A DNA stretch of 64,000 nt. Source: an uncultured Gammaproteobacteria bacterium (lineage in GTDB: Bacteria; Patescibacteriota; Microgenomatia; Levybacterales; UBA12049). Of this stretch, positions 2,756 to 57,130 are shown piece by piece (positions within the stretch are counted from its first letter, which is position 1; the number at the start of each line of letters is the position of its first letter). The DNA lies in contig CAZCYO010000002.1 in assembly GCA_964503265.1 (NCBI GenBank), positions 194,604 to 258,603 of the forward strand, read 5' to 3'. A program made the translations under genes and the position numbers. The notes beneath the pieces are model-generated. The model was not told the origin of the DNA and did not search any database. It saw only the letters and a list, made by a program, of their open reading frames with translations.

Positions 2756-2792
2756 ATTCTGTCATCCCAAATCAAGTTTGGGATGACAGAAT
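2756..2792. repeat. Extended palindrome, TGTCATYCC…GGRATGACA family (copy 1)
   Basis: attctgtcatcccaaatcaagtttgggatgacagaat; near-perfect; downstream of the tktC stop. Confidence 0.85.
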
Positions 2793-2803
2793 ATAAGAGA
2801 TTA

Positions 2804-3793
2804 CTATTTTCTAGAAATAACTTTTTTAACGGCTTCTTTGATCGCGGGGGCGTCCATGTGGTATTTCGCGAGGAGTTCTTTGGGTGTTCCTGATTCGGCG
2901 AACGTGTCTTGGAGGCCGATAAATTCCTGAGGGGTGGGATGATGTTTTGCGAGTGTTTCAGCAATCAGACTGCCTAATCCCCCCATTACTTGATGATCTT
3001 CAACAGAGACGATTGCTCCAGTTCGTTTCGCAAGTTCGACGACGGTGTCGGAATCAAGTGGTTTAATCATCGCGACATTCGCAACTAGCACCTGGATTCC
3101 CTCTTCTTCAAGCTCTTTTGCGGCAAGTAAGGCATAGTAGAGCATGTAGCCAGTGGCAAAGATTGTCGCAACTGGATTCTCGTTCACCCAGAAGGTTTGG
3201 ATTTTATGAGCGTCAAATGGTGTCTCTTCTGTCGTGATGAGTGGCGTTTTATCTCTGGTATAGCGAAGATATGCTGGTCCATAGTGACTTCCGACATATT
3301 CTGTGGCTTTTTTCGACTCAATTGCATCACAGGGAACTGCAATTTCAATGCCTGGCCATGCGCGAACTGAGGCAATATCTTCTGTCGCTTGGTGTGTCGC
3401 TCCATCTGGTCCAGTCATGATTCCAGCATGATGTCCAGCTACTTTGACGTTTGACTCGTTATATACGATCGTTGTTCTGATCTGCTCCCAGTTGCGGCCT
3501 GGATTAAATGTCGCATATGAGGAGATAAAGGCTGTTTTCCCACTGACTCCCATACCAGCTGCAATCGTCGCCATATTTTGCTCTGCAACTCCCACATCAA
3601 AGAACCGTTCTGGAAATTTTTTCTCAAACGCATCACATCGAGTCGATTCTGAAAGGTCTGCAGTGAGGACGACAACGTTTGGATCTTTTTCTCCAAGTGC
3701 GACGATACCTGTGCCAAATCCATCACGAGTTGCTTTCTGTTCGACATCAGCATCAAAGAGTTTTTCGTTAAGTTTTAAATCTTTATTTAACAT
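2804..3793 (-). CDS. tktB: Transketolase, C-terminal (pyrimidine-binding) subunit
   Basis: 329 aa; transketolase Pyr and C-terminal domains (…TRDGFG…, …HQVMGGLGS…); directly downstream of the N-terminal subunit gene. Confidence 0.9.
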   Translation of the reverse strand: MLNKDLKLNEKLFDADVEQKATRDGFGTGIVALGEKDPNVVVLTADLSESTRCDAFEKKFPERFFDVGVAEQNMATIAAGMGVSGKTAFISSYATFNPGRNWEQIRTTIVYNESNVKVAGHHAGIMTGPDGATHQATEDIASVRAWPGIEIAVPCDAIESKKATEYVGSHYGPAYLRYTRDKTPLITTEETPFDAHKIQTFWVNENPVATIFATGYMLYYALLAAKELEEEGIQVLVANVAMIKPLDSDTVVELAKRTGAIVSVEDHQVMGGLGSLIAETLAKHHPTPQEFIGLQDTFAESGTPKELLAKYHMDAPAIKEAVKKVISRK

Positions 3794-3807
3794 ATTTTTC
3801 TTATAAT

Positions 3808-3832
3808 TGTCATCCTCGACTTGATCGAGGAT
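3808..3832. repeat. Family palindrome (partial) overlapping the 5' leader of tkt C-subunit gene
   Basis: tgtcatcctcgacttgatcgaggat; the minus-strand RNA reads …tcgaggatgacaatta… 14 nt before the ATG. Confidence 0.7.
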
Positions 3833-3871
3833 CTATTAGATAAATTCCTAATATAAGGATAGATCTAAAAG

Positions 3872-3896
3872 ATTCCCGTTTTCACGGGAATGACAG
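3872..3896 (-). terminator. Family palindrome acting as intrinsic terminator of tkt N-subunit gene
   Basis: Minus-strand reading: tgtcattcccgtgaaaacgggaat + cttttag directly after the stop. Confidence 0.65.
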
Positions 3897-3897
3897 A

Positions 3898-4779
3898 TTA
3901 TACTGTCGCCATTCTCATATGTAGCTCGTCTTCGATTTTTTTAAGTTCTGTTAAGGCTTTTTCTGCTTCTTCTGCATTTGGTGGTTTACCATGCCAGGTG
4001 TAGTCTCGCTCCATGAAACTCACTCCCTTACCAGGATTCGTATGCGCCATAATAAGTGTCGGTTTCCCATGTAACTGCTTCGCTTCTTCAACAGCTTTAA
4101 TAACTGCAGCCATATCATTTCCATCGACTTCAATCACATGCCAGTTAAATGCTTCGTATTTCGCTCGAAATGGTTCAAGCGGCATAACCTTACTCACTGG
4201 TCCATCAATCTGAATATCATTATAGTCAATTATTTGAATCAGATGGTCAAGTCCCCATTTGCCAGCACTCATCGCTGCTTCCCAGGTACTTCCCTCCTGA
4301 TGCTCGCCATCAGATGTTAAGACATAGACATAATGAGATTTCTGATCAAGTCTGGCTGCGAGTGCAATACCAACTCCCTGAGAAAGTCCTTCACCTAGTG
4401 GTCCTGATGTCGTCTCTAAACCCGGAAGCACAGTTCTATGTGGATGCCCCTGGAGTCGGGAGTTAATTTTGCGAAGTGTTTTAAGTTCTTCAATCGGGAA
4501 ATATCCAGCTGTCGCCATCGTGACGTAGCGCACAGGACAGATATGACCATTTGAGAGAAGTAATCGATCTCGATCTGGCATATCTGAATTCGTCGGATCA
4601 TGGTGAAGCAGATGAAAATAGAGTGCTGTAAAAATATCGGCCATACCAAGTGGACCAGCAGAGTGCCCGGATTTGGCTTCAAGAAGCGTCGTCATGAGAA
4701 GCTGGCGAACAGTGTTCGCCTTCAGTTGTAGTTCGATGAGTTGTTTTTCAGATAGTTGTTCCATATAGTTAATTGTCAT
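3898..4779 (-). CDS. tktA: Transketolase, N-terminal (TPP-binding) subunit
   Basis: 293 aa; TPP-binding motifs GHSAGPLGMADIF and LTSDGEHQEGSTWEA. Alternative start at M6 (4764). Confidence 0.9.
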   Translation of the reverse strand: MTINYMEQLSEKQLIELQLKANTVRQLLMTTLLEAKSGHSAGPLGMADIFTALYFHLLHHDPTNSDMPDRDRLLLSNGHICPVRYVTMATAGYFPIEELKTLRKINSRLQGHPHRTVLPGLETTSGPLGEGLSQGVGIALAARLDQKSHYVYVLTSDGEHQEGSTWEAAMSAGKWGLDHLIQIIDYNDIQIDGPVSKVMPLEPFRAKYEAFNWHVIEVDGNDMAAVIKAVEEAKQLHGKPTLIMAHTNPGKGVSFMERDYTWHGKPPNAEEAEKALTELKKIEDELHMRMATV

Positions 4780-4802
4780 CCTCGATCAAGTCGAGAATGA
4801 CA
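4774..4802. repeat. Family palindrome overlapping the tkt N-subunit start codon
   Basis: tgtcatcctcgatcaagtcgagaatgaca; the annotated ATG (4777-4779) lies inside the left arm. Confidence 0.8.
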
Positions 4803-4813
4803 TGTATAATATC

Positions 4814-6088
4814 TCACTTCTTATAAATAATCATCAAGTCTGAGACGTTCGATTCTAGTTTTCCAGTGTCGATTCCGTCTCCTATTTTTGAAAAGAATTC
4901 GTAACTATTATCATCTGCCAAAAAACTCTGAGGGTCAAGATGCATTTCCTGCGCTTTTTTAACAGTACTGCTATCAGCGATCGCTCCAGCAAAGAAGTAA
5001 AAATCCATTCCATCACTATCAAATGATGCAAAGGTAGTCTTTTCATCAAGATGTGGTAAGCTTCCTAGAACTAATGTTTGGTTCCGCCCACCTTTACCTG
5101 TACCTGTTACATGTAACGTCGTTTCTCCACCAAGTAACGTTAAACCAGGTTGCGCATCAGCAAGTAATTGTTTTGCGAGAGTTTTCGCATCTCCCTGTGT
5201 TTTATCAGATCCGATGGTGACAGAAATTCCTAACGATTCAGCTTTTTTCTTCATCGCTTCCATGGCTGTTCTGTTACTCACAATGAGAAGATTTGAGACG
5301 TTAGAAAAGTATTTATCATCTGTCGCTATTTCTGAAAAGTCGCTATCTGCAAGAGTCAAATCTTCAGGAAGTGGATATTTCGTGAGAAGTTCACGCACTG
5401 TTTCCATGGTTGATTCTTCTTTTACCGTCGGTCCTGAAGCGATCACTGATAGTACACTTCCTGGAACATCTGAGAACATCAAACTCATCACACGAGAAGG
5501 ATACAAATGCTTGGCCAGTCCCCCACCTTTTACTTTTGAAAGATGTTTACGAATGACATTCATTTCTGAGATCGTCGCACCACTTTTCAGCATGGAGTCA
5601 AATACTTTTTTCAATTTTTCAAACTCTAATGCATATGGTGCTTCAAACATAGCCGATCCACCACCGCAAATCACAACTAATACTAAATCTTCTTCTGTTA
5701 GATCATGGATATTCTCAAGAACCTGTTTTGTAAATGCGATATTTGTTTCAGATGGTAGTGGATGTGTACCGAGTGTAAAGTGAATTTTTGAAAATGTTTG
5801 TTCGACATTATCGATCACATAACCGTCTGTTAACCTGTCTCCAAGTGTCTTTTCAATAATTTGCGCAATCCCGGCTGAACCTTTTCCAAACCCAATCACG
5901 AACACACGCTTGTAGTGATTCAGATCTACTGATTCATTCATGATCGTGAGCATCGAATCGTTAAGTGAAACATGCGTATTCATCGCGTTTGCCGGCTGGA
6001 TTGAAGTGAAGGCTGTTTCAATAAGATCGAGGATAACTTTTCGTTCTGGAGTCGTAGCTAATGTGTCGTAATTTTTAATAACGCTCAT
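4814..6088 (-). CDS. Glycerate kinase (MOFRL/DUF4147 family, glycerate 2-kinase)
   Basis: ORF 4814..6124. Probable start M13 (MSVIKNYD…) at 6088. Glycine-rich GKGSAG and LLGGETTLHVTGTGKGGRNQ motifs typical of MOFRL glycerate kinases. Confidence 0.75.
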   Translation of the reverse strand: MSVIKNYDTLATTPERKVILDLIETAFTSIQPANAMNTHVSLNDSMLTIMNESVDLNHYKRVFVIGFGKGSAGIAQIIEKTLGDRLTDGYVIDNVEQTFSKIHFTLGTHPLPSETNIAFTKQVLENIHDLTEEDLVLVVICGGGSAMFEAPYALEFEKLKKVFDSMLKSGATISEMNVIRKHLSKVKGGGLAKHLYPSRVMSLMFSDVPGSVLSVIASGPTVKEESTMETVRELLTKYPLPEDLTLADSDFSEIATDDKYFSNVSNLLIVSNRTAMEAMKKKAESLGISVTIGSDKTQGDAKTLAKQLLADAQPGLTLLGGETTLHVTGTGKGGRNQTLVLGSLPHLDEKTTFASFDSDGMDFYFFAGAIADSSTVKKAQEMHLDPQSFLADDNSYEFFSKIGDGIDTGKLESNVSDLMIIYKK

Positions 6089-6210
6089 TAAGATAAATAT
6101 ACAGTGTGTCCTGAGGGAAAGCAACTCGGTATTTACTCAAACAAGCTATAGTATCATCCATTTCGAGAACCATGACGTGCCGGAACCGATTCTGGTAAAG
6201 CTTTCAGCTT

Positions 6211-6296
6211 TCTAGAATGACAATAATATAGGTGTCATCCCAGACCCCGCCAATGTTTTAAAAGAGCGAGTTGGGGGTGACAAGCATACTACATGA
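6211..6296. repeat. Cluster of degenerate family half-sites in the divergent region
   Basis: tctagaatgacaat…gtgtcatcccagacccc…gggggtgacaag. Confidence 0.4.
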
Positions 6297-6311
6297 ATAT
6301 ATAATTACCAT

Positions 6312-6815
6312 GTGATCCACTATTCATTTACTACATCATTCGTTATTAACTCGTCACTCCCAGCTGTTTGGAAAACACTTCTGGATTTTCCGCAATGGAA
6401 AAGCTGGTGGCCAGGTGTGAAATCTCTGAGTGTTTCTGCTAAAAAACTTTCGCCAATACTCCACCTGAGAATTGGATTTCCGTTTTATTCCCTCGCACTT
6501 AATCTTCAAATCACCCATATTGATACAAAAAAAGTCATAGCATTTACGACAAGTGGAGATCTTATCGGAAATGGCATGTTCATTCTCAACACAAAAGGCG
6601 AATCTACAGAAGTCATATTCGATTGGAATGTCGCCACACCAAAATTATGGATGAATATCGTTGGAGCACTAGCCAAGCCTATTTTTGAATTCTCGCATAA
6701 TGTAGTGATGCGATGGTTTGTAGAAGGTCTTGCAAAACAGCTGCGAACAAGTGCGTCAGATGTGTCCTATACAGTAAACAAAACACCACCTGTAAGAGAA
6801 GAATTTACAATCTAA
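6312..6815 (+). CDS. SRPBCC (polyketide cyclase/START-like) family protein
   Basis: 167 aa; N-terminal …SLPAVWKTLLDFPQWKSWWPGVKS… matches the Polyketide_cyc2/SRPBCC signature. Confidence 0.55.
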   Translation: MIHYSFTTSFVINSSLPAVWKTLLDFPQWKSWWPGVKSLSVSAKKLSPILHLRIGFPFYSLALNLQITHIDTKKVIAFTTSGDLIGNGMFILNTKGESTEVIFDWNVATPKLWMNIVGALAKPIFEFSHNVVMRWFVEGLAKQLRTSASDVSYTVNKTPPVREEFTI

Positions 6816-6875
6816 CTTAGATATTACGTAAGAAGACGTGTCATCGTGTGGACTGTACAAAACAATGACTAACGT

Positions 6876-7694
6876 TTAGTTTCGACTTGAATCAACGATA
6901 GATTGTACGCTTTTACTACCACGAAAAAGATGTTTTGCACGATGCAGTCGCATTCGAACAGTTGACATAGGAACATCTAGTTCTCGGGCGATATCGCTAT
7001 AGCTTAGGTCACCAAAATATCTCAACTCTACGATTCGTCGATAATCATCAGGTAAGGTACCTATAACCCGTAAAATTTCATTCGAAGTTTCATCGCGTAA
7101 TGTATATTCTTCAGTTCGTTCACCTGAAACCAGCGTTCCTAGATCCTGATCACCAAAACCCGCATGTTTAGTTCTACTCCTTTGCTTTCTCAGTTCATCA
7201 AATGCTTTATTCCGAGCGATCTTGGCTCCCCACGGACCTAATCCTCCCCGATCTTCGACAAAACTATCCCGGTGTATCCACATTGCGAGGTGTGCTTCTT
7301 GAACTACCTGCTCTGCAATTCCACGATCACCAACTATTCTCTGTACAGACACAACTGTCTTTTCCCTATCATCTTCAAAGTAACGCTTCAATTTTTCTTC
7401 TAATTCATGTAAATCTTTGGGTTCTCGTTTTGTACTAATGGGCTCTGGAAGATGGTGTTCTCCATGTTCTGGTAAGGAAACGTCTTCAGCACGTAGTGTG
7501 CCTGAAGTATCATACATATCGTGATCAGACACATACCCATTTCCATTCGTACTATCTTCCAATCCATTACTGGATATATGGTCAATAGAATTGATAGGTA
7601 CATCAAATGGTAAGGTGAGATCCGCGGGAACCTGATATTCTCCCATATCTTCTGCAACTTCTAGTGGTGTAGTACGTTTAAATTCCATAAGCAC
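6876..7694 (-). CDS. ECF-type sigma-70 factor with a ~100-aa acidic N-terminal extension
   Basis: C-terminal half has sigma region 2 (…VVQEAHLAMWIHRDSF…) and region 4 HTH (…RYFGDLSYSDIARELDVPMSTVRMRLHRA…). N-terminal 100 aa is D/E-rich with no recognisable domain. Confidence 0.75.
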   Translation of the reverse strand: MLMEFKRTTPLEVAEDMGEYQVPADLTLPFDVPINSIDHISSNGLEDSTNGNGYVSDHDMYDTSGTLRAEDVSLPEHGEHHLPEPISTKREPKDLHELEEKLKRYFEDDREKTVVSVQRIVGDRGIAEQVVQEAHLAMWIHRDSFVEDRGGLGPWGAKIARNKAFDELRKQRSRTKHAGFGDQDLGTLVSGERTEEYTLRDETSNEILRVIGTLPDDYRRIVELRYFGDLSYSDIARELDVPMSTVRMRLHRAKHLFRGSKSVQSIVDSSRN

Positions 7695-7801
7695 AAGTGC
7701 GGATTATAGGATATTTTATATGTTTGGTCAACCGTTGTTATCACATAACAGTAAGAACAGTTAACTATTGACAATTATAAAATCAGGAGTATAGTTAGTG
7801 T

Positions 7802-8509
7802 ATGAAAGACACTAAGATAATTGCTTTACCAAACGAGACGCAACCAAGAAATCTTCAGGAGTTAAAAAAGCCTGCTGTTTCAATCCAAGTACTTATTTTT
7901 TCAATCCAACATAATAAACTCACAGTAGCTCTCATTAACCGTCCACGAGAACCATTTCTTAATTTCTGGAGTATTCCGGGAGACATGATCGAGGAACATG
8001 ATCCACTTGAAACTGCTGCACGATCTATTTTATTTCGAAAAACAGGTATTCGAGACGTCTATCTCGAGCAGTTATATACATTTGGAGATATAGATCGAGA
8101 CCCAAGAGGAAGAGTTATCACCATCGCCTATTTCGCGCTTATCCCTCATACAAGTATCGATTTAACGAAAGCGCCACTAACACTTAAAGCAAAATGGGTA
8201 AATGTGAATGCTCTACCAGAATTAGCCTTCGATCACGCAAAAATTATTCAGTATGCAGTAGAACGGATCAAAGCAAAGCTTCTCTATAGTGACATCGCTA
8301 AAGCGCTCCTCCCTGAAAAATTTAGATTATCCGAACTCCAGCAGGTGTATGAAGTCATTCTCGGAAATTCACTTGATAAACGAAATTTCAGAAAGAAAAT
8401 GCTCTCACTGCATATTATCGAACCGACGCTAGAAACATATAAAGAAGGCAGTCATAGACCTGCCAAATTATTTCGATTTTGCACGAAAGAGCTAGTCATT
8501 TTTGATTGA
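7802..8509 (+). CDS. NUDIX-family hydrolase-like protein (NrtR-like architecture with C-terminal extension)
   Basis: 235 aa; degenerate Nudix box around WSIPGDMIEEHDPLETAARSILFRKTGI. C-terminal ~90 aa unassigned. Confidence 0.5.
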   Translation: MKDTKIIALPNETQPRNLQELKKPAVSIQVLIFSIQHNKLTVALINRPREPFLNFWSIPGDMIEEHDPLETAARSILFRKTGIRDVYLEQLYTFGDIDRDPRGRVITIAYFALIPHTSIDLTKAPLTLKAKWVNVNALPELAFDHAKIIQYAVERIKAKLLYSDIAKALLPEKFRLSELQQVYEVILGNSLDKRNFRKKMLSLHIIEPTLETYKEGSHRPAKLFRFCTKELVIFD

Positions 8510-8729
8510 TTTTTTTTGAACAAGAGTTAGTGTATTTAATACATTAACTAAATTACTGATTATTGCTATATATTTTACCTTATAGTAAAATCTCTTAGCA
8601 AAACTTATAGGCTGAATATATGCGTCAGGCGCATCTATTTGTCTAGAAGTACTAGGCAATTGTACTCCAAGTGAGACAGGCGAACGCTCGCCTATCCTCT
8701 CGCAAGGAGTGCTCTTTGACAAGTGAAGA

Positions 8730-9680: not shown

Positions 9681-9695
9681 CGAAAGAAGGAGAAC

Positions 9696-16117: not shown

Positions 16118-16651
16118 TTACTTTTTATCTGGAACGAAGTAGAGAGCTTCTGAGTTCATACAATATCTTTTATATGTCGGGGATGGGCCGTCGTCAAAGA
16201 CGTGACCTAAGTGTCCCCCACATTTGTCTAAAACTTCAATTCTTTCCTGTCCAGGTACGCTGTCATCTTTTCTAAGGACGAGTGCTTCTTTAGAAATTGG
16301 GTCCCAGAAGCTCGGCCAGCCGGTTCCTGAATCGTACTTCTGCTCGGACCTAAACACTGGTTCGTCACAGCCCACACTATAGAATGTTCCTTTTCGATGT
16401 TCATCCAGGAGCGCCCCGGTAAATGGAATTTCTGTTCCCGCTTCACGCAGGATATGGTATTGGTCAGCTGTTAAGAGTGTTTTCCACTGCTCATCTGTTT
16501 TTACTTTCGCTTTATCGAAGCTTCCTGAGATGATAGAGGAAGAATCTGATGTAATAGTCGAAGGAGTGACGAGTTTCGTAGTATGAATCATCATCCAACC
16601 AAAGACGATTATGGCGATGACTAAGAAAGTAAAGAAAAGTTTTATGTTCAT
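16118..16651 (-). CDS. msrB: Peptide-methionine (R)-S-oxide reductase MsrB, exported or membrane-anchored form
   Basis: N-terminal hydrophobic anchor MNIKLFFTFLVIAIIVFGWMMI; catalytic RYCMNSEAL and GHLGHVF motifs; lacks the two zinc-binding CxxC pairs. Confidence 0.85.
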   Translation of the reverse strand: MNIKLFFTFLVIAIIVFGWMMIHTTKLVTPSTITSDSSSIISGSFDKAKVKTDEQWKTLLTADQYHILREAGTEIPFTGALLDEHRKGTFYSVGCDEPVFRSEQKYDSGTGWPSFWDPISKEALVLRKDDSVPGQERIEVLDKCGGHLGHVFDDGPSPTYKRYCMNSEALYFVPDKK

Positions 16652-16664
16652 AATGTAGTTACAT

Positions 16665-16746
16665 TGTCATTCCCGCGAAAGTCGCGATCCTTCGAAGGGG
16701 GACGGGAATCTTTTAAATAGATCCCCGATCTGGTCGGGGATGACAT
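16665..16746. repeat. Two adjacent family palindromes between the CcdA-Trx gene and msrB
   Basis: tgtcattcccgcgaaagtcgcg…cgggaatc and atccccgatctggtcggggatgacat. Confidence 0.75.
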
Positions 16747-16764
16747 ATTACTTTTTAGCTTAAA

Positions 16765-18570: not shown

Positions 18571-18600
18571 CTGGATCCCAAATCAAGTTTGGGATGACAG
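18571..18600. repeat. Family palindrome (near-identical core to copy 1)
   Basis: ctggatcccaaatcaagtttgggatgacag vs copy 1 tgtcatcccaaatcaagtttgggatgacag. Confidence 0.8.
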
Positions 18601-18617: not shown

Positions 18618-18680
18618 AGTTATTAGTTATTAGTTATTAGTTATTAGTTATTAGTTATTAGTTATTAGTTATTAGTTAAC
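18618..18680. repeat. Heptanucleotide microsatellite (AGTTATT)8 + AGTTAAC
   Basis: Read directly: agttattagttattagttatt… 8 perfect units then a variant unit. Lies in the 525-nt divergent intergenic region between the CcdA-Trx/msrB operon start (18531) and purF (19057). Confidence 0.95.
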
Positions 18681-21699: not shown

Positions 21700-22092
21700 A
21701 TGAATAAGCTCACTTTTGATGAGACACGAGTGATTGTCGGGAAAGGGACTGAGGAGCCGTTTACGGGTGAGTATGATAATTTTTATAAAGACGGGACATA
21801 TATTTGTCGGCGATGTAATAATCCCCTCTACTCTGCGAAAACGAAATTTGATGCGCACTGTGGATGGCCAGCATTTGATGATCATTTCGAAGGTGCGGTA
21901 AAGAGAAATCCTGATCCCGATGGCAGACGAGTTGAGATAGTATGCGCCAACTGTGATGCACATTTGGGGCATGTATTTACCGGTGAACAATTGACAGAGA
22001 CGAATACGAGGCACTGTGTGAATTCACTTTCGATCAAATTCATTCCTGAAGGGACAGAGCTGCCGGAGGTGTTAGACAAAGAGGAGGAATAG
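21700..22092 (+). CDS. msrB: Peptide-methionine (R)-S-oxide reductase MsrB, cytoplasmic zinc-containing form
   Basis: 130 aa; two CxxC pairs (CRRC…, CANC…) plus HLGHVF and RHCVNS catalytic motifs. Confidence 0.9.
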   Translation: MNKLTFDETRVIVGKGTEEPFTGEYDNFYKDGTYICRRCNNPLYSAKTKFDAHCGWPAFDDHFEGAVKRNPDPDGRRVEIVCANCDAHLGHVFTGEQLTETNTRHCVNSLSIKFIPEGTELPEVLDKEEE

Positions 22093-22093
22093 T

Positions 22094-22166
22094 TGTCATC
22101 CTGGAATGGCAAAGACCATGATAGGATCTCACTTATTGTCATTCCGGACTTGATCCGGAATCCAGG
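22094..22166. repeat. Nested family palindromes between msrB and msrA
   Basis: Outer tgtcatcctgga…tccagg with inner tgtcattccggacttgatccggaat. Confidence 0.7.
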
Positions 22167-22237
22167 CTCCTACTGTTACTGAAATAAAAGCAACTGGATC
22201 CTGAATCGAGTTCGTGGCCGCAGGCTCCCTTCGGGAG

Positions 22238-22813
22238 ATGACTTATATTATGAATAACAATACTACTACTGAAATTGCAACATTGGCTGGAGGATGTTTC
22301 TGGTGTACGGAGGCGATATTTAAACGACTTAAGGGAGTGATGTCTGTTCTTCCTGGGTATGCTGGTGGGCATGTGGAGAATCCAAGCTATGCTGAAGTTT
22401 CGGAAGGAACGACGGGACATGCTGAGGCGATCCAGATCGAGTTCGACCCGACTGAAATTCCTTTTGAGAAGATCCTTGATATTTTCTGGCATACGCATAA
22501 CCCGACGACGATCAACCAGCAAGGAAATGATGTCGGACCACAGTATCGATCGGTCATTTTCTATCACGATGAGCAACAAAAAGAAATAGCTGAGAAATCA
22601 AAAGAAGAACTTGAAAAAGATAATCCCTATCATGCGCCGATCGTGACAGAAATTACTGAGTTTACGAATTTTTATGAAGCTGAGGATTATCATAAAAATT
22701 ATTTCGACCGCAACCAAAACCAAGCCTACTGCAACTTCGTCATCGATCCAAAGATTCACAAGTTATTAACGATGTATAAAAAAGATGTGAAGGATGAATA
22801 TATAGAGGAATAA
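22238..22813 (+). CDS. msrA: Peptide-methionine (S)-S-oxide reductase MsrA
   Basis: ORF 22214..22813. GGCFWCTEA active-site motif at the N-terminus. Start at ATG 22238 or 22250 (RBS gggag 22233-22237). Confidence 0.9.
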   Translation: MTYIMNNNTTTEIATLAGGCFWCTEAIFKRLKGVMSVLPGYAGGHVENPSYAEVSEGTTGHAEAIQIEFDPTEIPFEKILDIFWHTHNPTTINQQGNDVGPQYRSVIFYHDEQQKEIAEKSKEELEKDNPYHAPIVTEITEFTNFYEAEDYHKNYFDRNQNQAYCNFVIDPKIHKLLTMYKKDVKDEYIEE

Positions 22814-22822: not shown

Positions 22823-22863
22823 TGTCATTCTGGAAAACAGATCCTGGACAAGCCAGGATGACA
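22823..22863. repeat. Nested family palindrome after msrA stop
   Basis: tgtcattctgg aaaacag atcctggacaagccaggat gaca. Confidence 0.8.
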
Positions 22864-26595: not shown

Positions 26596-26619
26596 TGTCA
26601 TTCTCACGAAAGTGAGAAT
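26596..26619. repeat. Family palindrome
   Basis: tgtcattctcacgaaagtgagaat. Confidence 0.75.
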
Positions 26620-26687
26620 CTATTAGACTATTCCTATGACAATTACTTATATGAGAGTCTGTTATATGTTAAGGAATTCTCTAAGAG

Positions 26688-26714
26688 ATTCTCAGTCAAG
26701 CTGAGAATGACAAT
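26688..26714. repeat. Family palindrome
   Basis: attctcagtcaagctgagaatgacaat. Confidence 0.75.
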
Positions 26715-38156: not shown

Positions 38157-38804
38157 TTAGAACAATTCTTCTTCATTTGGTGTATGTGGCATCTCTGAAA
38201 CGATCATTTTATAATACACTTCCCGTGTGAGCACCACATCTTTCATACAATACGTCGCGATCTCCTCTATCCGTCCCTCCTGAAAATACTTCCACACATC
38301 TCCCCCATTCATTTCATCCTTTGACGTCTGAAGACCGAAGACTTTAGACAGCAGATCCAGTTTTACAGCCTTTCGACTATCTCCCCACAGATCCCATTCT
38401 TTCATCGTGTCATAAATCGGCACATTTCTGTACCGTGCGAACGAGATATCCATCCTCGGCATGACTCCCAGAATTCGTGACCGTTTATAGATAAATGGGA
38501 AATCGAACTCATATATATTATGCCCGACGAACTGATGCACTCCCTGTGCGATCTCCCAGAACTTCGTCAGCATGTCTTTTTCCTCACCCGTAAGCACTCC
38601 CTCCTCGATTACTCCCGCATCATTATCCTTTATATACCCGATAGCACAAACCCGCCCGAAAGCCCCATCAAAAGACATAGATTCATACAGCTCCCTTTCT
38701 TCTTTCTCCGCATTCCCATTCTTAGCCCGCATAATCTCCACGAATTTTTCGCGGTTATCTTCATCACAAGGAATTGTTTCAATATCAAAAAATAATCTGA
38801 TCAT
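38157..38804 (-). CDS. DEDD-family 3'-5' exonuclease (RNase H-like fold)
   Basis: Exo motifs FFDIETIP (Exo I), FVGHNIYEFDFPF (Exo II), YCMKDVV (Exo III, Y-x3-D). Confidence 0.7.
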   Translation of the reverse strand: MIRLFFDIETIPCDEDNREKFVEIMRAKNGNAEKEERELYESMSFDGAFGRVCAIGYIKDNDAGVIEEGVLTGEEKDMLTKFWEIAQGVHQFVGHNIYEFDFPFIYKRSRILGVMPRMDISFARYRNVPIYDTMKEWDLWGDSRKAVKLDLLSKVFGLQTSKDEMNGGDVWKYFQEGRIEEIATYCMKDVVLTREVYYKMIVSEMPHTPNEEELF

Positions 38805-38844: not shown

Positions 38845-38899
38845 TGTCATTCCGGTCTTGCTTGCCGGTCGTAGCATAGGCGAAGTCTGGATCCGGAAC
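38845..38899. repeat. Family palindrome (composite)
   Basis: tgtcattccggtcttgcttgccgg…tctggatccggaac. Confidence 0.55.
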
Positions 38900-39088
38900 C
38901 CAGCAACTAATTATCTTATCTATTGTTTTTTCTCTTTATTCTCGGTAGAATCTCCTCAGTTATGGCCGATAATCCCAGAAGAACTGAAGTAATAAGAAAT
39001 CCACATACAGGAAGCGTCGGGCCTCGCCCACAGCCAGATAGAGCTCCCGCACAACCAGCATCACAGCCGCCTGCCAACCCTAAACCAA

Positions 39089-49713: not shown

Positions 49714-49740
49714 AAAGCCCCAGTTGGGGCTTTTTTGTTG
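49714..49740. terminator. Bidirectional intrinsic terminator
   Basis: aaagccccagttggggcttttttgtt; A-tract upstream and T-tract downstream serve both the 49078 gene (+) and the convergent 49867 gene (-). Confidence 0.75.
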
Positions 49741-49866
49741 AGGAGAACTTTCCACGGACAAAGCACCATGAAGGCTTCGAGTATCGAAGCAATCTAGTGC
49801 ATCTGTCCGTCTACGCATGTGTAGCCGTTAACGCATATGATCGCTCCTTTCTCACCGTTATGGTGC

Positions 49867-50691: not shown

Positions 50692-50904
50692 GACGTCCTC
50701 TCTTTCGTACTAACTCACCTGTCAAAGAACTCCACTTCGCTAAAGCTTCGCGGAGCAAGCCCAGCGAGCCTATCGAAACGGTGTATTGATCTCGCCCTCC
50801 TTAGCGTTATGCGAAAGAGAGAAAGAACAAATTCATCATACTGTGGTTCAGGCTTTCACGCTTGATCTAAAAATGATATAATAATGACGTAATTAGCTTT
50901 ATTT

Positions 50905-52029
50905 ATGAAATATAATTTTAAAGAGAAAGAATTATCTGCAGACTTTAGCGTAAATTTGACATCAGAAGTCACCCGTCAGCTTACTCCTGCTGGTCTTTTT
51001 ACGCTTTCTGGAATGTCAGGTGTGGGTATTTCTTTTTTCATTCGCTTTTTAGTAAGTCAAAAATTAGATAAAAGTATTTATATCGATATTCTGTCTTTAT
51101 CTACTCCTACCAAAGCAGCTGTTTATGAAGCGCTTCTGAAAGAACTCGGAGGAAATGTAGCAGGTAACACAGATGTTCTCGAAGCATGTAAAAAACGACT
51201 AGAAATAGTTCTTAAAGAAGAAAACCACATAACAATTATCTTTAATCGCTTTGATGAACTAGGAAAAGAAATTGATAAGCAGTTTTTAGGTAGTCTTCGA
51301 ACGCTTAGACACGGGGCGGCAGATAAAGTCTCGATGATTTTCGTGACACACTCGTCGATGGTAAAACTTTTTCCAGAAGCAGTTGCAAATGCAAATCTCG
51401 ATTTATTTTCAAATATTGTCTGGTTCTCCCCTTTTTCTAAAGATGATTTACTCGCCCTCATAACACTTCATTCACCTGAACTTGTCACTGATCCGGAGGT
51501 TTTTACGTCAGCATACATAGCATCGGGTGGACATTACCAATTATGTAAATTGTTCTTAAAATCTTCATATAAAACTTCCCCACTTCAGGACCCAACAATT
51601 CTCTATTCCCTCCAATCTCTCTACGAAGGCTTTAGCTATTCTCAGAAAAAACAGTTACAACGAATTGTGCAAAAAAAAGGTATTAAAAACATCGATCCTG
51701 ATCTTCTTAATCTAAAAGCCGTTATCTTTACAAATGATTCATACACACTCTTCTCCCCTCTTCTTGAAGAGTATATTAAAAAATTCTCACGGCTTAAATT
51801 ACCTGTTAAAGAAGCGATAATATTTAAACTGTTAAAACAAGCCAGAGGAAAAGTCGTTTCGAAAGAAGAACTCTTTAGATCTCTCTGGTCAGAAGATGCA
51901 GAAGAATTTGGTTCTGACTGGGCGCTTAATTCACTTATCTATCGCCTCAGAAAAAACCCGACCTTTATCTCACAGGGATATGTGATCGAAAATTATAAAA
52001 AAGTAGGGTACACCCTACTTAAAGATTAG
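50905..52029 (+). CDS. Regulator-like protein: N-terminal degenerate P-loop NTPase-like domain + C-terminal OmpR/PhoB-type winged-helix DNA-binding domain
   Basis: SGMSGVGISFF (Walker-A-like but lacking Lys) and IIFNRFDEL (Walker-B-like). C-terminus …VKEAIIFKLLKQARGKVVSKEELFRSLWSED…WALNSLIYRLRKN matches trans_reg_C. Confidence 0.5.
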   Translation: MKYNFKEKELSADFSVNLTSEVTRQLTPAGLFTLSGMSGVGISFFIRFLVSQKLDKSIYIDILSLSTPTKAAVYEALLKELGGNVAGNTDVLEACKKRLEIVLKEENHITIIFNRFDELGKEIDKQFLGSLRTLRHGAADKVSMIFVTHSSMVKLFPEAVANANLDLFSNIVWFSPFSKDDLLALITLHSPELVTDPEVFTSAYIASGGHYQLCKLFLKSSYKTSPLQDPTILYSLQSLYEGFSYSQKKQLQRIVQKKGIKNIDPDLLNLKAVIFTNDSYTLFSPLLEEYIKKFSRLKLPVKEAIIFKLLKQARGKVVSKEELFRSLWSEDAEEFGSDWALNSLIYRLRKNPTFISQGYVIENYKKVGYTLLKD

Positions 52030-52103
52030 TAAGTCCCCTGTTTTTTCCATTGCGATAGTGAATTAGTAATAGAAGTCTGGTTCGAAATAGTCGTAAGTGG
52101 CCC

Positions 52104-52132
52104 CTGCTGTCATTCCCGAAGGATGACAGCAG
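52104..52132. repeat. Family palindrome between convergent genes
   Basis: ctgctgtcattcccgaaggatgacagcag, near-perfect. Confidence 0.85.
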
Positions 52133-52213
52133 GGATGGAATTCAGATAAAGGATATCCTCTGCTAAAAGATGCACGCATCTTTTAGGGTAAGACATGCTT
52201 ATCTTGCTTTCCG

Positions 52214-52480
52214 TTAGGAGACATTGTTTTGCATAATGGCTGAAATCTGCCGCGCCCAGGGAGTATCTACACCCTTAAGTTCATTGGTCAGAATCGCTGC
52301 CATTTTCTGCCAATCCAACGACATGTTCTCAAGTGGCGTATATGGCACATCATCACGAAGACTAATAAGCCGCTGGCGGAGGTTATGGTATCCTTGTTTT
52401 GGAATTTGTTCCAGAACCTGATTAATGACAGCCTGAATATCACGCACGTTGCACCTCCAAAGTCCTAAAAAAGCTACCAA
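52214..52480 (-). CDS. Hypothetical small protein (GC-rich), 88 aa
   Basis: Intact ORF only; weak. Confidence 0.3.
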   Translation of the reverse strand: MVAFLGLWRCNVRDIQAVINQVLEQIPKQGYHNLRQRLISLRDDVPYTPLENMSLDWQKMAAILTNELKGVDTPWARQISAIMQNNVS

Positions 52481-52559
52481 ATAGTAGCTTTACGCAGTAG
52501 CGCGCTCAAATTTTACTATAAAAATAATTATTAGTCAAACTATGGGATATCATCTTTGT

Positions 52560-53600
52560 CTATTTGAGGTATTTTTTATAAAATTCCACAGTTCGCTCCA
52601 TCGCAGTGCCGAAACTCGGATCAGTGATATTGTGTCCACCTGTCGAGTATTCATAATATTCGTGAGGAATCGAAGTTTTATCCAGGAGCGCCACGAGATC
52701 TCGACTATAGCCGATATTCACCACATCATCATCCTGTGCATGATGAATTTCTATCGCTCCTTTGATATCTGATAAATAGTTAGTCGGTGCGACCTGTGAC
52801 CAGAACGGACTACTCGCACTTGGGCTGCCTACTTTTTCAAGTAATTGCCGTCTCAGGTTTGTTCGCTGTGTTACCTCAACTGGTGGACGATAACTCGTAT
52901 CATTAAGTCCATATTTGAGTTGATCTTCATACGAATACACTGCACCCGCCCAGATGACAATAGCAGGAATTGTTTGTTTAATCACAGCTGAGCGAAGTAA
53001 TGTATTTCCAGCCATCGAGTGTCCCCACATTCCCACTGCATCTTTATTGACGAAGTCAGCTGACTGCATCGCAGCATAGGCATTAAGCGTATCGACTACA
53101 TAATCAGATCCGTAGTAGCCCCCACCTGCTTTTCCTTCTGATTTTCCATGACCTCGCAGATCAATTTTAAATACCACAAATCCATTTCTTGCGAGTGAGT
53201 CCACATACGCGATATATTTTTCAGTTGTTACATACTGTGTCGGTGGAATATATCCATGAACGAAAATAACTGCCGGCCAGCCCCCGTTAGGCTTCTCTCC
53301 GGTAGGTTTTGTTACCAGCGCATTAATGTTTAATCCATCTGACTGATAGCTCGTTAGATACGAGGTGTAACTCCCGTTATCTGAAATTTGTTCAAGTGCT
53401 CCTAATTTGCTTGTATAACTACGCGAACGAAGATATGGGATTGTCATGTGCTGATATATTTCCGGGAATGCAGAAAGTAACAATTGAGATGTAGCATTCA
53501 TAGTAGTACGTGCTTTCTTAGAAATACCAAAGTAACTCAGTACAACTACAAATAGAACAAGTAACACGGAGATTATACCGATAAGTAGTATTCGAGACAT
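52560..53600 (-). CDS. Alpha/beta-hydrolase (dienelactone hydrolase / S9-like), signal-anchored
   Basis: N-terminal TM; …VIFVHGY…, nucleophile elbow GHSMAG, C-terminal …GGHN… His. Confidence 0.7.
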   Translation of the reverse strand: MSRILLIGIISVLLVLFVVVLSYFGISKKARTTMNATSQLLLSAFPEIYQHMTIPYLRSRSYTSKLGALEQISDNGSYTSYLTSYQSDGLNINALVTKPTGEKPNGGWPAVIFVHGYIPPTQYVTTEKYIAYVDSLARNGFVVFKIDLRGHGKSEGKAGGGYYGSDYVVDTLNAYAAMQSADFVNKDAVGMWGHSMAGNTLLRSAVIKQTIPAIVIWAGAVYSYEDQLKYGLNDTSYRPPVEVTQRTNLRRQLLEKVGSPSASSPFWSQVAPTNYLSDIKGAIEIHHAQDDDVVNIGYSRDLVALLDKTSIPHEYYEYSTGGHNITDPSFGTAMERTVEFYKKYLK

Positions 53601-53704
53601 ATCGAAGAGAAGGTATACTATAACACATCGTAATGAAAATGAGAAAACTATCCACTACCCCTTCCTTCCCCGTAATAGGGGAAGGAAGGTCTAACAAACA
53701 ATGC

Positions 53705-55285
53705 TTAGTGAACAAAAACAACACCGTTCACTACGTTAAAAGGGCCATCAGCCGGCGAAGTCATCGCACTTACTCCAGCCTCTGCTAGAGTTTTCGTGGT
53801 AAAGCTTCCCCAAATCTGATCCGGACTACCATCTTTTACTTTCGCAAAAAGCCACTGGCCAACCCATGATGGATTGCTTGCCTGTGCAACTTTTCCAGCG
53901 AAGTACGCATACTGTCCCGAGACGCTAACACTCGAAATTAAGAGCCGATACCACGAACCATTTGCGTCTTTATACGTAAATGCTCCGTTCTGATCAGCAG
54001 TATTCGCGACGAACTGTGCAGTTCGAGTTAATCCATTAGCCGAGTACGTAGCGTTTCCTAAAATTGAGTGTGAATTCGCTCGCACGTATGCGACACACTG
54101 ACCTTGGTTTGGAAATGTAGGAGAATTAAACGTACTCCATCCTCCATTTTTACACTGATCCACAGTCGTCGGTGGACCGATAACTGGAACTACCGTAATG
54201 TGATACGGATTTTCTACACCGTTAGTCCATGCTGAGGTAACTAACGCTCCGTCTCGTGCACGAACCCTGAGATAGTACTCTCCTGGAGGTGTTCCAGCTG
54301 TTGGAATTTCAGACACTGTTAACCACCCACTCGAATAAATATTCGACGTATATAACGCATCAGAAAATGCTTCGTACTGATATTCATACGGTGGATTTGT
54401 ACTTCCAGATGAGTCTGTCCAATCAACTTTCACCAGTGCACTACTTAAAACACTTACCCCATTTGTGGGAATTGTTATTACTGGAGTTGAGGGAGCGACA
54501 TTTGGTTCGAAATCAAATGTCTTAGTACCAGATGCTGTACCTAGTTTAAACGCATCAATATTTTCTGTATAACCATCAGCATAGGGTTCACCTACACGAA
54601 TCCCCATCCATGAATCTGTTACTCGAACTCGAATTCCTGGAAACGCTGTTAGTAGTGAACTCCATGTTCGGTATTCACTAGTATTATTATCTGGCCATTT
54701 ATTACCATTGCTAGCATATCCTGACCATGTCCATAATCCGTTTCCTCCATTGACCCCGTCCCATTCTTTCCACGTATTTTGTGGAATAGTTCCGACAGTA
54801 TTTGCTGCAGGAACATATACTAATCTCTTTTGCCAACTATCTACTGGGTAATACGCAACATTATTAAAGTCGACATTAAAATTTAAGTATCCTGAACGAT
54901 TCGCACTTGCGGCTGCTCCATTTCCACTCGATGGATTATAGGTACTAAACGTAAGCGTTGTAATATTCGCAAGTGGTGTTCCACTAAATTGGTATGTTGC
55001 AAGATTGCGGCGCTGTGACCCAGTGACACTAATCTGTGCACTCCCAGTTCCAAGCGGTGCGACCACTGGTCCATTCACAAATGAACCAAGCGCATTATCG
55101 ATAACATCAGTTTCATCGTTATAGAAAAACCATTTTTCAGGATGAGCGATAACATCTGAAATATTTGTTGCAAGACTAGGCGCTGTCACGACAGTAGTCG
55201 TATTTACTGCAAAAGCAGGCAAAACTGTTGCAAAAAGAAGTGAAAGTGTGGCAAGAAAAGAAATTGCTAATTTTCTTATATTCAT
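53705..55285 (-). CDS. Large secreted protein of unknown function (526 aa)
   Basis: Signal peptide MNIRKLAISFLATLSLLFATVLPAFA; Thr/Asn/Gly-rich, probably beta-rich. Confidence 0.5.
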   Translation of the reverse strand: MNIRKLAISFLATLSLLFATVLPAFAVNTTTVVTAPSLATNISDVIAHPEKWFFYNDETDVIDNALGSFVNGPVVAPLGTGSAQISVTGSQRRNLATYQFSGTPLANITTLTFSTYNPSSGNGAAASANRSGYLNFNVDFNNVAYYPVDSWQKRLVYVPAANTVGTIPQNTWKEWDGVNGGNGLWTWSGYASNGNKWPDNNTSEYRTWSSLLTAFPGIRVRVTDSWMGIRVGEPYADGYTENIDAFKLGTASGTKTFDFEPNVAPSTPVITIPTNGVSVLSSALVKVDWTDSSGSTNPPYEYQYEAFSDALYTSNIYSSGWLTVSEIPTAGTPPGEYYLRVRARDGALVTSAWTNGVENPYHITVVPVIGPPTTVDQCKNGGWSTFNSPTFPNQGQCVAYVRANSHSILGNATYSANGLTRTAQFVANTADQNGAFTYKDANGSWYRLLISSVSVSGQYAYFAGKVAQASNPSWVGQWLFAKVKDGSPDQIWGSFTTKTLAEAGVSAMTSPADGPFNVVNGVVFVH

Positions 55286-55435
55286 AATAATTCACCTCCT
55301 CTCTCCCTGATTATTTCTTATATATAGATTAGTTATCTACAATTGAATATGATTGTGCAAGGCAAATTTTAAGCATGAGTATATTCTTAGATAAGAATAT
55401 CGTATATCTTCTAGTAAATGTGTGCAAGTAAGAAA

Positions 55436-55678
55436 TTATACCAATCCGGGGAAAAAATCGGTGACGATATGAGGTGGTTTGACTCCCATTTGTTTGAGCG
55501 TTGACTCATATGAATGTACCATTCCGTGCGGTCCTGAGAGATAAAAAATTCGTTCTTTCCAATCTGGCACCTCTGTTTGAATTAATCCTGAATCTAATCT
55601 TCCAACTCGCCCAGTCCACTGATCGTACTGTCTCTCTGTATCGGTAATCGTGTAGATAGTTTTTATCCCTAATCGCAT
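55436..55678 (-). pseudogene. Remnant of an FNR-like oxidoreductase (C-terminal NAD(P)-binding end only)
   Basis: 80-aa ORF ending …RIFYLSGPHGMVHSYESTLKQMGVKPPHIVTDFFPGLV matches the conserved C-terminus of ferredoxin-NADP-reductase-type NAD-binding domains. No FAD-binding N-terminal part upstream. Confidence 0.4.
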
Positions 55679-55811
55679 TTCTGCTTCATCAAAAATATCT
55701 TTATATACTATGTCCTGTGGATATTTATTCGCAAAGAAATGTACGATATCTCTTTTTTCATCTATGTATGATACTGCACATTTCTAATTCTAGCTTAACT
55801 TTAGTTGTACA

Positions 55812-56411
55812 TTACTGTGCTGAAGATGAAGCAGAAGGAGTACTTGTCACAGCTGATCCCTTATAGGTAAAATTTCGTGTTAACGATTTACTATCACTCG
55901 ATACGGTACTTGTGACACGCAGTTGAAATGACACGTTTCCACTTGGCAGATTATAGAGACACGGTGCATTCGTATTATATTCTGACCATGATCCCCCATT
56001 TATTCGATACGACCAGACGACAGAACAGTAATTCTCATCTGGATAACTGATCGTAAAACAGACTGGATTATCGCTAATCGTTTCCCCTTCAGCTGGTGAA
56101 CTAATACTAATTGGGCCTACGGTTTTTTTACAAACATTTGAGTTCGTTGGCTGCACGATGATATTCGGAGCAGTAGTGGTCTTTTCGGGAACTACTATGA
56201 CTTGTGGTGTAGGTGTAGCAGTATTTGTAGACGGTTTTTTAGCGATATTACTAAAGTTAACGATTAATCCCATGATAAGTAGCGGAATCGATAAAATCCC
56301 TGCCACATAATCCAAATGCATCTTCTGTGGTCTAAGTTTTTTAATCTTCCGAACCAGCCTCAAATTCTTTTCTTTCAAATCTTCAATCGCACTCATATCT
56401 TTATTGTACAA
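55812..56411 (-). CDS. Membrane-anchored Thr/Pro-rich surface protein
   Basis: TM helix then T/P-rich linker and Cys-containing beta-rich C-terminal domain. Confidence 0.45.
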   Translation of the reverse strand: MYNKDMSAIEDLKEKNLRLVRKIKKLRPQKMHLDYVAGILSIPLLIMGLIVNFSNIAKKPSTNTATPTPQVIVVPEKTTTAPNIIVQPTNSNVCKKTVGPISISSPAEGETISDNPVCFTISYPDENYCSVVWSYRINGGSWSEYNTNAPCLYNLPSGNVSFQLRVTSTVSSDSKSLTRNFTYKGSAVTSTPSASSSAQ

Positions 56412-56697
56412 AAATTCCCCTCATCAGTCCAGGAACCATTACAGCTAAGTCGTCCGTGTGAACTTTGCGTTAAAAAAAATTATCGGAATGAGCGTTAAAA
56501 AACTGTAAGGCGAAGCCCTATATAACTAAAGCTGAGTCCGGAGTTTTAGCCCCGATTTAATCGGGGTTAGCGAATGGAGAAGGATTTTTAGTATTGTGGA
56601 ACTTTAGGACGAGACCCGCCTTCATCGCTATGCGAAGCATTGCGGGCAGGGTTTTGGTACTTTTTCGGCAAAAAGTACGATAAAAAATAAAAGATTG

Positions 56698-57099
56698 CTA
56701 TTTCACTACCGCCGTACAAAACTTGCATCTCTTAGCCTTAAGAGGGATGAGGCTTAAACATTCAGGACACGTTTTATCTGTAGGATCAACTTTTTCTTTT
56801 CTTTTAATTCGATCTGTCAGTTTATTCATCGGAAGAACGATAAAGAAGTAAATAACCCCAGCGATGATAAGAAATGAAATTAACGCGTTAAGAAAGTCCC
56901 CGACTAAAAATTTACTTTTATTAATCGTAAAATAAATTCCTGAAAAGTTAGGTTCTCCCCCAAATGCTCCGATAAATGGCGTAATCACATCTTTAACCAA
57001 CGCATCTACGATCTTTCCAAATGCCCCACCGATCACGACCGCGACAGCCAAATCAACGACATTCCCACGAAGTATAAAATCTCTAAATCCTTTTAACAT
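56698..57099 (-). CDS. mscL: Large-conductance mechanosensitive channel
   Basis: MLKGFRDFILRGNVVDLAVAVVIGGAFGKIV… canonical MscL N-terminus. Confidence 0.9.
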   Translation of the reverse strand: MLKGFRDFILRGNVVDLAVAVVIGGAFGKIVDALVKDVITPFIGAFGGEPNFSGIYFTINKSKFLVGDFLNALISFLIIAGVIYFFIVLPMNKLTDRIKRKEKVDPTDKTCPECLSLIPLKAKRCKFCTAVVK

Positions 57100-57106
57100 A
57101 AAATAC

Positions 57107-57130
57107 TGTCATTCCCGACCTGATCGGGAA
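57107..57130. repeat. Family palindrome between photolyase stop and mscL start
   Basis: tgtcattcccgacctgatcgggaat. Confidence 0.75.

Follow-up and report, generated by a model that had tools for sequence, protein, structure and literature searches.

Hairpin repeats in operon spacers of an uncultured bacterium: probable Ssn-related motifs with a predicted GIY-YIG nuclease partner

The stretch analysed here, called the window throughout, comprises 64 kb of an uncultured, ORFan-rich bacterium (contig CAZCYO010000002.1, positions 194,604 to 258,603) and carries a family of short hairpin repeats with the arm TGTCATYCC. All window sites are intergenic, with six located between co-directional genes (tktC|omdA, tktN|tktC, glyK|tktN, dsbD-like|msrB, msrB|msrA and photolyase|mscL), three between convergent genes and three between divergent genes. 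Ten of the 11 clean units lie within the first 27 kb. The window contains no tRNA or tmRNA gene, and no Rfam family was matched at gathering score, with chance-level sub-threshold matches around the units. A preliminary description of this DNA had taken the repeats for extended palindromes reused as terminators and leader hairpins. The analysis below points to a different identity: with a probability of about 0.7, the units are hairpin repeats of the Ssn-related motif (SRM) class, of the Neisseria NTS/dRS3 type, and a predicted Ssn-family GIY-YIG nuclease is encoded outside the window.

TGTCATYCC occurs 11 times in the window, compared with 1.29 ± 1.23 expected, and none of 100 dinucleotide-preserving shuffles reached 11. 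The repeat unit is oriented, asymmetric and approximately 26 nt long, and consists of a 5' T-GTC, an 8-bp palindrome (ATYCYNNN/NNNRGRAT) enclosing a loop, a C, and then TA or CA. The loop is either 5 nt long (mostly CTTGA) or a GAAA tetraloop. Altogether, the window holds 11 clean units and about six decayed or composite copies. Alignment of the clean units revealed that TGTCAT, C14, G28 and AT are invariant and that the inner stem is variable. The TGTC flank, which is non-palindromic and oriented, is present in all 11, and the C directly 3' of the palindrome in nine, with G at this position in the two symmetric copies. A covariance model trained on these 11 copies was used instead of the poorly fitting published search strings; it recovers exactly the 11 clean sites, at 34–53 bits (E <= 3e-6), and elsewhere in the 64 kb weak matches only. 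The clean units possess perfect stems of 7–8 bp and loops of 4–5 nt, and as single-stranded DNA (ssDNA) they fold with energies of -6 to -16.6 kcal/mol (z-scores of -2.8 to -8.6). The window units form one family. At least 14 copies had been listed in the preliminary description, and every coordinate given there holds a related hairpin and the enrichment is real, but several of the long copies are decayed or composite. The extended palindrome with two conserved arms is not the unit, which bears TGTC on one side and C on the other; the two-armed form TGTCATYC...GRATGACA is found at three sites only (2760, 4774 and 22823).

Three inverted doublets, in which TGTC faces outward and the arms are 9–66 nt apart, are located at 3808-3895, 16665-16745 and 26596-26712, so that the features first read as extended palindromes at 3808/3872, 16665 (two copies) and 26596/26688 are in fact pairs of inverted units. 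The left arm of the first doublet is a plus-strand canonical unit at 3808..3834 (TGTC-ATCCTCGA-CTTGA-TCGAGGAT-C), which has the top model score of 53.4 bits, and the right arm is a minus-strand canonical unit with a GAAA tetraloop at 3870..3895 (TGTC-ATTCCCGT-GAAA-ACGGGAAT-C). The second doublet lies between the dsbD-like gene and msrB; its right arm is a minus-strand canonical unit at 16719..16745 (TGTC-ATCCCCGA-CCAGA-TCGGGGAT-C, 49.2 bits), and its left arm is a long-loop, decayed plus-strand unit at 16665..16711 (TGTC-ATTCCCG-[27 nt]-CGGGAAT-C), with a weak score of 12.4 bits and a fold z-score of -0.1. The third consists of a plus-strand canonical GAAA-loop unit at 26596..26621 (TGTC-ATTCTCAC-GAAA-GTGAGAAT-C, 40.1 bits) and a minus-strand canonical unit at 26686..26712 (TGTC-ATTCTCAG-CTTGA-CTGAGAAT-C, 46 bits), 28 nt from the glnA stop codon. 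Further canonical units are located at 18573..18599 on the minus strand (TGTC-ATCCCAAA-CTTGA-TTTGGGAT-C), 44 nt upstream of the dsbD-like start; at 22137..22163 on the plus strand (TGTC-ATTCCGGA-CTTGA-TCCGGAAT-C-CAG, 45.6 bits); and at 57107..57133 on the plus strand (TGTC-ATTCCCGA-CCTGA-TCGGGAAT-C-CAT, 49.3 bits), between the photolyase stop and the mscL start.

Two copies are symmetric. The first, at 2756..2792, is a perfect palindrome of 37 nt (ATTCTGTCATCCCAAA-tcaag-TTTGGGATGACAGAAT; core 2760-2788) with TGTC mirrored in both arms; it separates tktC (stop 2804) from omdA/ydeI (start 2741) and folds as ssDNA at -16.6 kcal/mol (z-score of -8.6). The second, at 4774..4802, is a palindrome of 29 nt (TGTCATCCTCGA-tcaag-TCGAGAATGACA) whose stem is nearly identical to that at 3812-3832. 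The identical core reported for the copies at 2756 and 18571 was confirmed, positions 2764-2789 and 18575-18600 sharing the same 26 nt (ATCCCAAATCAAGTTTGGGATGACAG). A composite element at 22823..22863 (34.3 bits), between the convergent msrA and response-regulator genes, combines a canonical minus-strand unit at 22839-22863 (TGTC-ATCCTGG-CTTGT-CCAGGAT-C) with a plus-strand 5' half-unit at 22823-22833.

The remaining copies are less regular. The long copies at 16665, 22094, 38845 and 6233, some of which had been described as nested within each other, fold no better than shuffled sequence (z-scores of -0.1 to -1.9) and are decayed or composite units. The plus-strand long-loop variant at 22094..22132 (TGTC-ATCCT-[..ATGG..CCAT..]-AGGAT-C), the fold of which is not significant, starts 2 nt past the msrB stop. 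Two putative decayed, unit-like hairpins can be read on the minus strand within 22197..22243 (22197-22217 and 22223-22243), neither of which is significant in the model. Three copies are doubtful: a degenerate plus-strand one at 38845..38900 (TGTC-ATTCCGG-[37 nt]-CCGGAAc-CCAG; z-score of -1.7, no significant model match); a short symmetric variant at 52097..52133 between convergent genes (CCTGCTGTCAT-CCTTCGGGA-ATGACAGCAGG; 10 bits, fold of -12.8 kcal/mol, z-score of -5.3); and a relic at 6233..6282 in a divergent promoter region (TGTCATCCC...GGGGGTGACA; z-score of -1.9), which has a weak neighbouring model match at 6179-6228.

Comparison with related genomes revealed that the units are recent arrivals. 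In 80 metagenome loci (802 kb) encoding homologues of the dsbD-like protein with 32–67% identity, the model finds three matches, compared with 11 in the 64-kb window. Two closer relatives, obtained through GlnA and tktN homologues, have genes with approximately 71–80% nucleotide identity to the window, and no unit was found in about 60 kb of their syntenic DNA with filters off. At four junctions, the spacers of relatives measure -8 to 20 nt, and the window has 37–157 extra nt composed of units. The msrB and msrA genes overlap by 8 nt (GCATGAATAAA) in relative L244 and are 157 nt apart in the window (22093-22249), where two units and two decayed ones lie between them. The glyK and tktN genes overlap (TGATG) without a unit in the sister species L258, and the window has a 50-nt block at 4764-4813, centred on 4774-4802. 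The spacer between tktN and tktC is 12–20 nt in relatives L255 and L257 and is occupied in the window by the doublet of about 88 nt, directly after TAA-T. Finally, tktC and omdA are 20 nt apart in L255/L256, where the palindrome is absent, and the window has the additional 37-nt palindrome. Because units are absent or different in close relatives at these four junctions, the window copies are recent insertions into short AT-rich spacers, with fast turnover; the 5' flanks of the insertions are AT-rich. The sister species L258, whose tktN protein is 98% identical to that of the window (about 89% nucleotide identity, with the 50-nt gap counted in the alignment), carries a different array of 285 nt between tktN and tktC (956-1240), with one canonical unit at 1166-1191 and several interrupted or half units, the stems of which are unlike those of the window doublet. 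Turnover appears rapid at this junction, which looks like a hot spot. In L244, another gene follows glnA after 6 nt, without a unit, and in the distant relatives L140 and L146 the dsbD-msrB spacer is approximately 10–20 nt long, compared with 113 nt in the window, including the 81-nt doublet. In L255 (5853-6575) and L257 (2545-3255), a GDSL-lipase gene is situated between the dsbD-like gene and msrB, where the window slot (16652-16764) holds the 81-nt doublet only; the gene was either lost in the window or gained in the relatives.

These junction insertions of 37–157 nt and the different array of the sister species support the earlier proposal of REP/MITE-like propagation (after repetitive extragenic palindromes, REPs, and miniature inverted-repeat transposable elements, MITEs) over independent evolution of terminators. 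Membership of the MITE class itself was considered and rejected: inverted ends are present in the doublets, but no target-site duplication is recognisable at the four mapped junctions, and Pfam/NCBIfam searches of the approximately 60 window open reading frames (ORFs) revealed no associated transposase. The base-resolution presence and absence data bear on how SRMs multiply, with insertion in operon spacers and turnover between sister species. They also matter for annotation, as units generate false start codons, lengthen intergenic spacers and would wrongly be annotated as terminators. For tktN, the mechanically called ORF begins with the ATG within the ATGACA of a unit (4774-4779); the homologues are 287–288 aa long and that of the sister species begins with MEQ..., which places the true start at the ATG that ends at 4764. 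Similarly, the GTG at 22214 is a false start for msrA, which begins with the ATG at 22250.

The unit is distributed far beyond this lineage. One genome per species (185,579 species) was scanned with the pattern TGTCATYCYNNNCTTGANNNRGRATC, which does not require the stem to pair, and at least 135 matches in at least 120 loci from more than 20 phyla were obtained. By our own arithmetic with equal base frequencies, about 17 matches to this pattern (approximately 36 bits) are expected by chance on both strands of 596 Gb. The hosts among the matches listed include Proteobacteria (all classes), Bacteroidota, many Patescibacteria, Melainabacteria, Elusimicrobia, Dehalococcoidia, Spirochaetes, Omnitrophota, Dependentiae, Coxiellaceae and one archaeal metagenome-assembled genome (MAG). 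A single CTTGA-loop subtype is thus common to more than 20 phyla among these matches, almost letter for letter. A perfect complementary 8-bp stem is present in 112 of the 135 matches listed, and the covariance model finds 192 copies in 100 of the listed loci, many of them in inverted doublets or arrays. For instance, at least 12 units lie within about 1 kb in a Melioribacteraceae MAG (L089, 140-953), and an alphaproteobacterial MAG has four units within a direct duplication of 135 nt (L032, 40-257). In IMG/VR, the canonical unit occurs in 41 viral-contig stretches (L203-L243), of phage or host-flank origin, some with two copies.

The aligned copies from the listed loci also bear on the level at which selection acts. 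Pairing is kept in 99.6% of the cells of 148 distinct copies, and seven of the eight pairs are doubly changed, with 260 compensatory cells in an alignment that was, as a caveat, fitted to the model. Approximately 13 cells are G-U, and slid controls collapse. The covariation and the near-absence of G-U pairs fit a palindrome or hairpin at the DNA level, not an RNA, as the object of selection. Among 185 perfect-stem copies, 184 have C 3' of the palindrome (about 112 of them fixed by the search pattern and the remainder free to vary), and T precedes GTC in approximately 90%.

With this distribution in hand, the terminator reading can be weighed. It holds that the units are intrinsic terminators and leader RNA hairpins working at the RNA level, and we consider it highly improbable. 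All copies are intergenic, several lie 8–50 nt from start codons, and three match a lenient terminator pattern, each oriented correctly for the upstream gene (2794-2754, on the minus strand of the 37-nt palindrome; 3891-3872; and 22859-22841, in the composite element); in all, two to three window copies look terminator-like. The total pattern count in the window, however, equals the shuffle expectation. The T-tracts said to follow several copies are rare: two to three of the approximately 15 window copies have one, a run of at least four T within 12 nt follows two of the 11 clean units, and a T-run follows 25 of the 185 perfect-stem copies elsewhere. Moreover, units face either way with respect to transcription, and some (at tktN|tktC and msrB|msrA) lie inside operons for which the relatives have overlapping or abutting genes. 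Because T-runs are few, the pattern is not enriched, both orientations occur and sites are operon-internal, a terminator or leader role as a general function is not supported. The scarcity of G-U pairs, the absence of an Rfam family match and the published finding that SsnA does not bind the RNA form of its motif (PMC11893778) likewise argue against action as RNA.

The system to which the units are best compared was characterised by Chenal et al. (Nat Commun 2025, PMC11893778). The Neisseria NTS (CGTCATTCCCGCGMAVGCGGGAATCYRG), which contains dRS3 (ATTCCC-N8-GGGAAT), was generalised in that study to Ssn-related motifs. SsnA is a 94-aa GIY-YIG (cd10448) ssDNA endonuclease that binds the motif solely in its ssDNA form, with the cut placed a few nt upstream; cleavage is governed by the three bases 5' of the palindrome (the GTC flank), and for binding no base is more critical than the C just 3' of it (PMC11893778). 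Cleavage was shown in vitro for the enzymes of Neisseria, N. elongata, N. wadsworthii and Wolbachia, and ssn genes are typically flanked by the motif (PMC11893778). In the window, the unit at 3870-3895 contains the exact dRS3 pattern at 3872-3891, the one exact match in the window, and agrees with the Neisseria NTS consensus at 23 of 28 positions (manual count).

Unbiased ORF clustering of the unit-bearing loci (at least 120) left, housekeeping families apart, a single family that recurs: a small GIY-YIG protein (PF01541). In L080, the GIY-YIG gene at 5546-5935 has outward-facing canonical units 35–36 nt away on both sides, and GIY-YIG genes are likewise directly flanked by units in L011 and L016. 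A profile search retrieved thousands of proteins annotated as GIY-YIG nuclease family, approximately 103 aa long. In the Flavobacteriaceae loci sampled, homologous genes for GIY-YIG proteins of about 103 aa (L264, 2001-2318; L259 and L269, 2001-2315) lie beside variant hairpins (ATTCCTGC-GAAG-GCAGGAAT-C) and occupy operon spacers, namely paaA/paaB and that between dut and a nucleotidyl-transferase gene. Two more distant relatives, L128 (8479-8916) and L149 (3334-3669), contain small GIY-YIG genes flanked by CCGCGTC-TGA-CGCGG or CCGAGTC-TGA-CTCGG, which looks like another Ssn/motif pair, and small GIY-YIG genes are found among tRNA genes in L163 and L170.

Several results weigh against assigning the window units to the SRM class with an Ssn partner. 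The published degenerate SRM regular expression, hand-built from 29 genomes (PMC11893778), matches three window sites only, those at 3870-3895, 16719-16745 and 52097-52133, a consequence of the CTTGA loop and the AT-richer inner stem. No window site lies within three mismatches of the Neisseria NTS, and the 3' C is missing from the two symmetric copies. GIY-YIG genes number five in 678 kb of unit-bearing loci versus four distinct ones in 802 kb of control loci, where they are flanked by other hairpins or tRNAs; with no excess in count, the link rests on adjacency together with the published association. Finally, neither a six-frame hidden Markov model (HMM) search nor Pfam searches of the approximately 60 ORFs found a GIY-YIG or ssn gene in the 64-kb window or in the overlapping Logan contigs L122 and L254. 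The six-frame HMM search also found none in close relatives and none in the 41 viral loci (368 kb). Judged by its sequence, the window element is a CTTGA-loop subtype and probably not a copy of the Neisseria element.

The lack of an ssn gene in the 64 kb is what would be expected if the units were orphan selfish hairpins, SRM-like in form but spreading without Ssn or any protein partner by replication slippage, template switching or recombination. Among genomes with more than 200 SRMs, 81% have an ssn gene and 19% have no detectable ssn homologue (PMC11893778), and the symmetric copies look like products of hairpin fold-back rather than nuclease substrates. Nevertheless, strict conservation across phyla extends to the GTC flank, which does not pair, to the CTTGA loop and to the 3' C, and this implies recognition by a sequence-specific protein, and canonical units flank GIY-YIG genes elsewhere. 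On this evidence, a family with no protein partner appears unlikely. It is very unlikely, in turn, that the units are REP or REPIN (REP doublets forming hairpins) elements served by a RAYT (REP-associated tyrosine transposase, an IS200/IS605-like Y1 enzyme), or targets of an IS110/Piv-type recombinase. The inverted doublets do resemble REPINs and BIMEs (bacterial interspersed mosaic elements), a conserved 5' tetranucleotide stands beside the palindrome, and dRS3 is a known recombinase target, for Neisseria filamentous prophages (PMC11893778). However, the Pfam/NCBIfam searches of the window ORFs detected no Y1, IS110 or other transposase domain, a transposase family is recurrent in none of the unit-bearing loci listed, and the tetranucleotide is TGTC rather than GTAG.

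If the units are SRMs served by an Ssn nuclease, the partner would be a small single-domain GIY-YIG protein of the Ssn family encoded outside the window. The hairpin would extrude when the TGTC strand becomes single-stranded, during replication, repair or the entry of transforming or conjugative DNA, and Ssn, by analogy with the enzymes studied, would bind it through the stem and the 3' C and would nick the strand a few nt 5' of GTC. The doublets share the geometry of the unit-ssn-unit cassettes in other genomes and would best be taken as gene-less (MITE/REPIN-like) derivatives of such cassettes, spread by Ssn activity or host repair. The compensated stem changes would fit intra-hairpin templated correction, and any effect on transcription, from RNA hairpins formed in the spacers of operons, would be incidental. 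More tentatively, the window may catch SRM hairpins in the act of moving: the symmetric palindromes could be copying footprints, produced by a nick 5' of GTC, fold-back and mirroring of the 5' flank, an idea that we find rather doubtful. The symmetric TGTCAT...ATGACA form was found neither in 1.48 Mb of fetched loci nor in IMG/VR, and movement of SRMs is only hypothesised in the Ssn paper (PMC11893778). If true, the Ssn/SRM pair would represent a mobile element of a new, hairpin-based kind, beyond a restriction-like ssDNA system.

Other features of the window stand beside the repeats. A perfect tandem array of (AGTTATT) x 8.7 (100% matches) occupies 18618-18678, 19 nt from the unit at 18573-18599, in the divergent dsbD-like/purF intergenic region, and could be a slippage-prone contingency repeat. 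Two msrB paralogues are present (16118-16651 and 21700-22092). An association of units with msr and dsbD genes was considered, as two other unit-bearing loci (L017 and L021) also contain msrA/B, but it is not significant, with approximately 0.6 such loci expected by chance on a rough estimate. The region from 27000 to 57000 (about 30 kb) consists mostly of small ORFs without Pfam matches and is free of clean units; its Pfam-matched exceptions include a PolB-type exonuclease (38157-38804), two DUF1761 proteins and DUF6166. G+C is raised (0.50) at 8–12 kb, where four ORFs have no family match. A bacterial type IB topoisomerase gene is located at 1103-2149, and a carotenoid cluster (phytoene synthase, polyprenyl synthase and lycopene cyclase) at 59575-63959 adjoins the photolyase gene, the product of which is 57% identical to a photolyase from a Gastranaerophilales MAG. 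The closest named tktN homologues come from Patescibacteria MAGs, with approximately 70% identity.

Among known systems, Rho-independent terminators resemble the units in having a stable stem-loop closely downstream of some genes, whereas most window copies have no U-tract, are sequence-conserved in flanks and loop, and include operon-internal copies and copies upstream of genes. MITEs such as the Neisseria Correia elements share with the doublets (80–117 bp) their non-coding nature, terminal inverted repeats and presence/absence polymorphism; in contrast, the units have no recognisable target-site duplication and no related DDE transposon, and single half-elements are as common as doublets. 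The REP/BIME/REPIN elements and RAYTs of E. coli, Pseudomonas and Stenotrophomonas are closer. They too are short extragenic palindromes with a conserved 5' tetranucleotide and inverted doublets or arrays, located in intergenic regions including operon-internal spacers, with lineage-specific expansion and quick turnover between close relatives. However, REPs carry GTAG beside an imperfect palindrome and are species-specific, whereas the window units carry TGTC beside a perfect palindrome, are conserved across phyla and, where a protein is associated, are accompanied by a GIY-YIG nuclease, not an HUH/Y1 transposase.

The comparison with NTS/dRS3/SRM elements and SsnA reveals both differences and a shared design. 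In the window, CTTGA predominates among the loops, the inner stem is AT-richer and no ssn gene is seen; the symmetric TGTCAT...ATGACA derivatives occur only here among the sequences examined; and the host belongs to an uncultured, ORFan-rich lineage, unlike the symbionts and pathogens studied so far. Common to both are the oriented GTC-AT(T/C)CC... palindrome with a stem of 7–8 bp and a loop of 4–5 nt, the C directly 3' of the palindrome followed by YA or YRG, the intergenic location with clustering around particular genes, and the outward-facing units around a small GIY-YIG gene (in L080 and L011, not in the window). One window unit is an exact dRS3 and two have the GAAA tetraloop. On this comparison, the conspicuous repeats of an uncultured bacterium would take their place in the Ssn/SRM ssDNA-nuclease system, which was characterised only in 2025.

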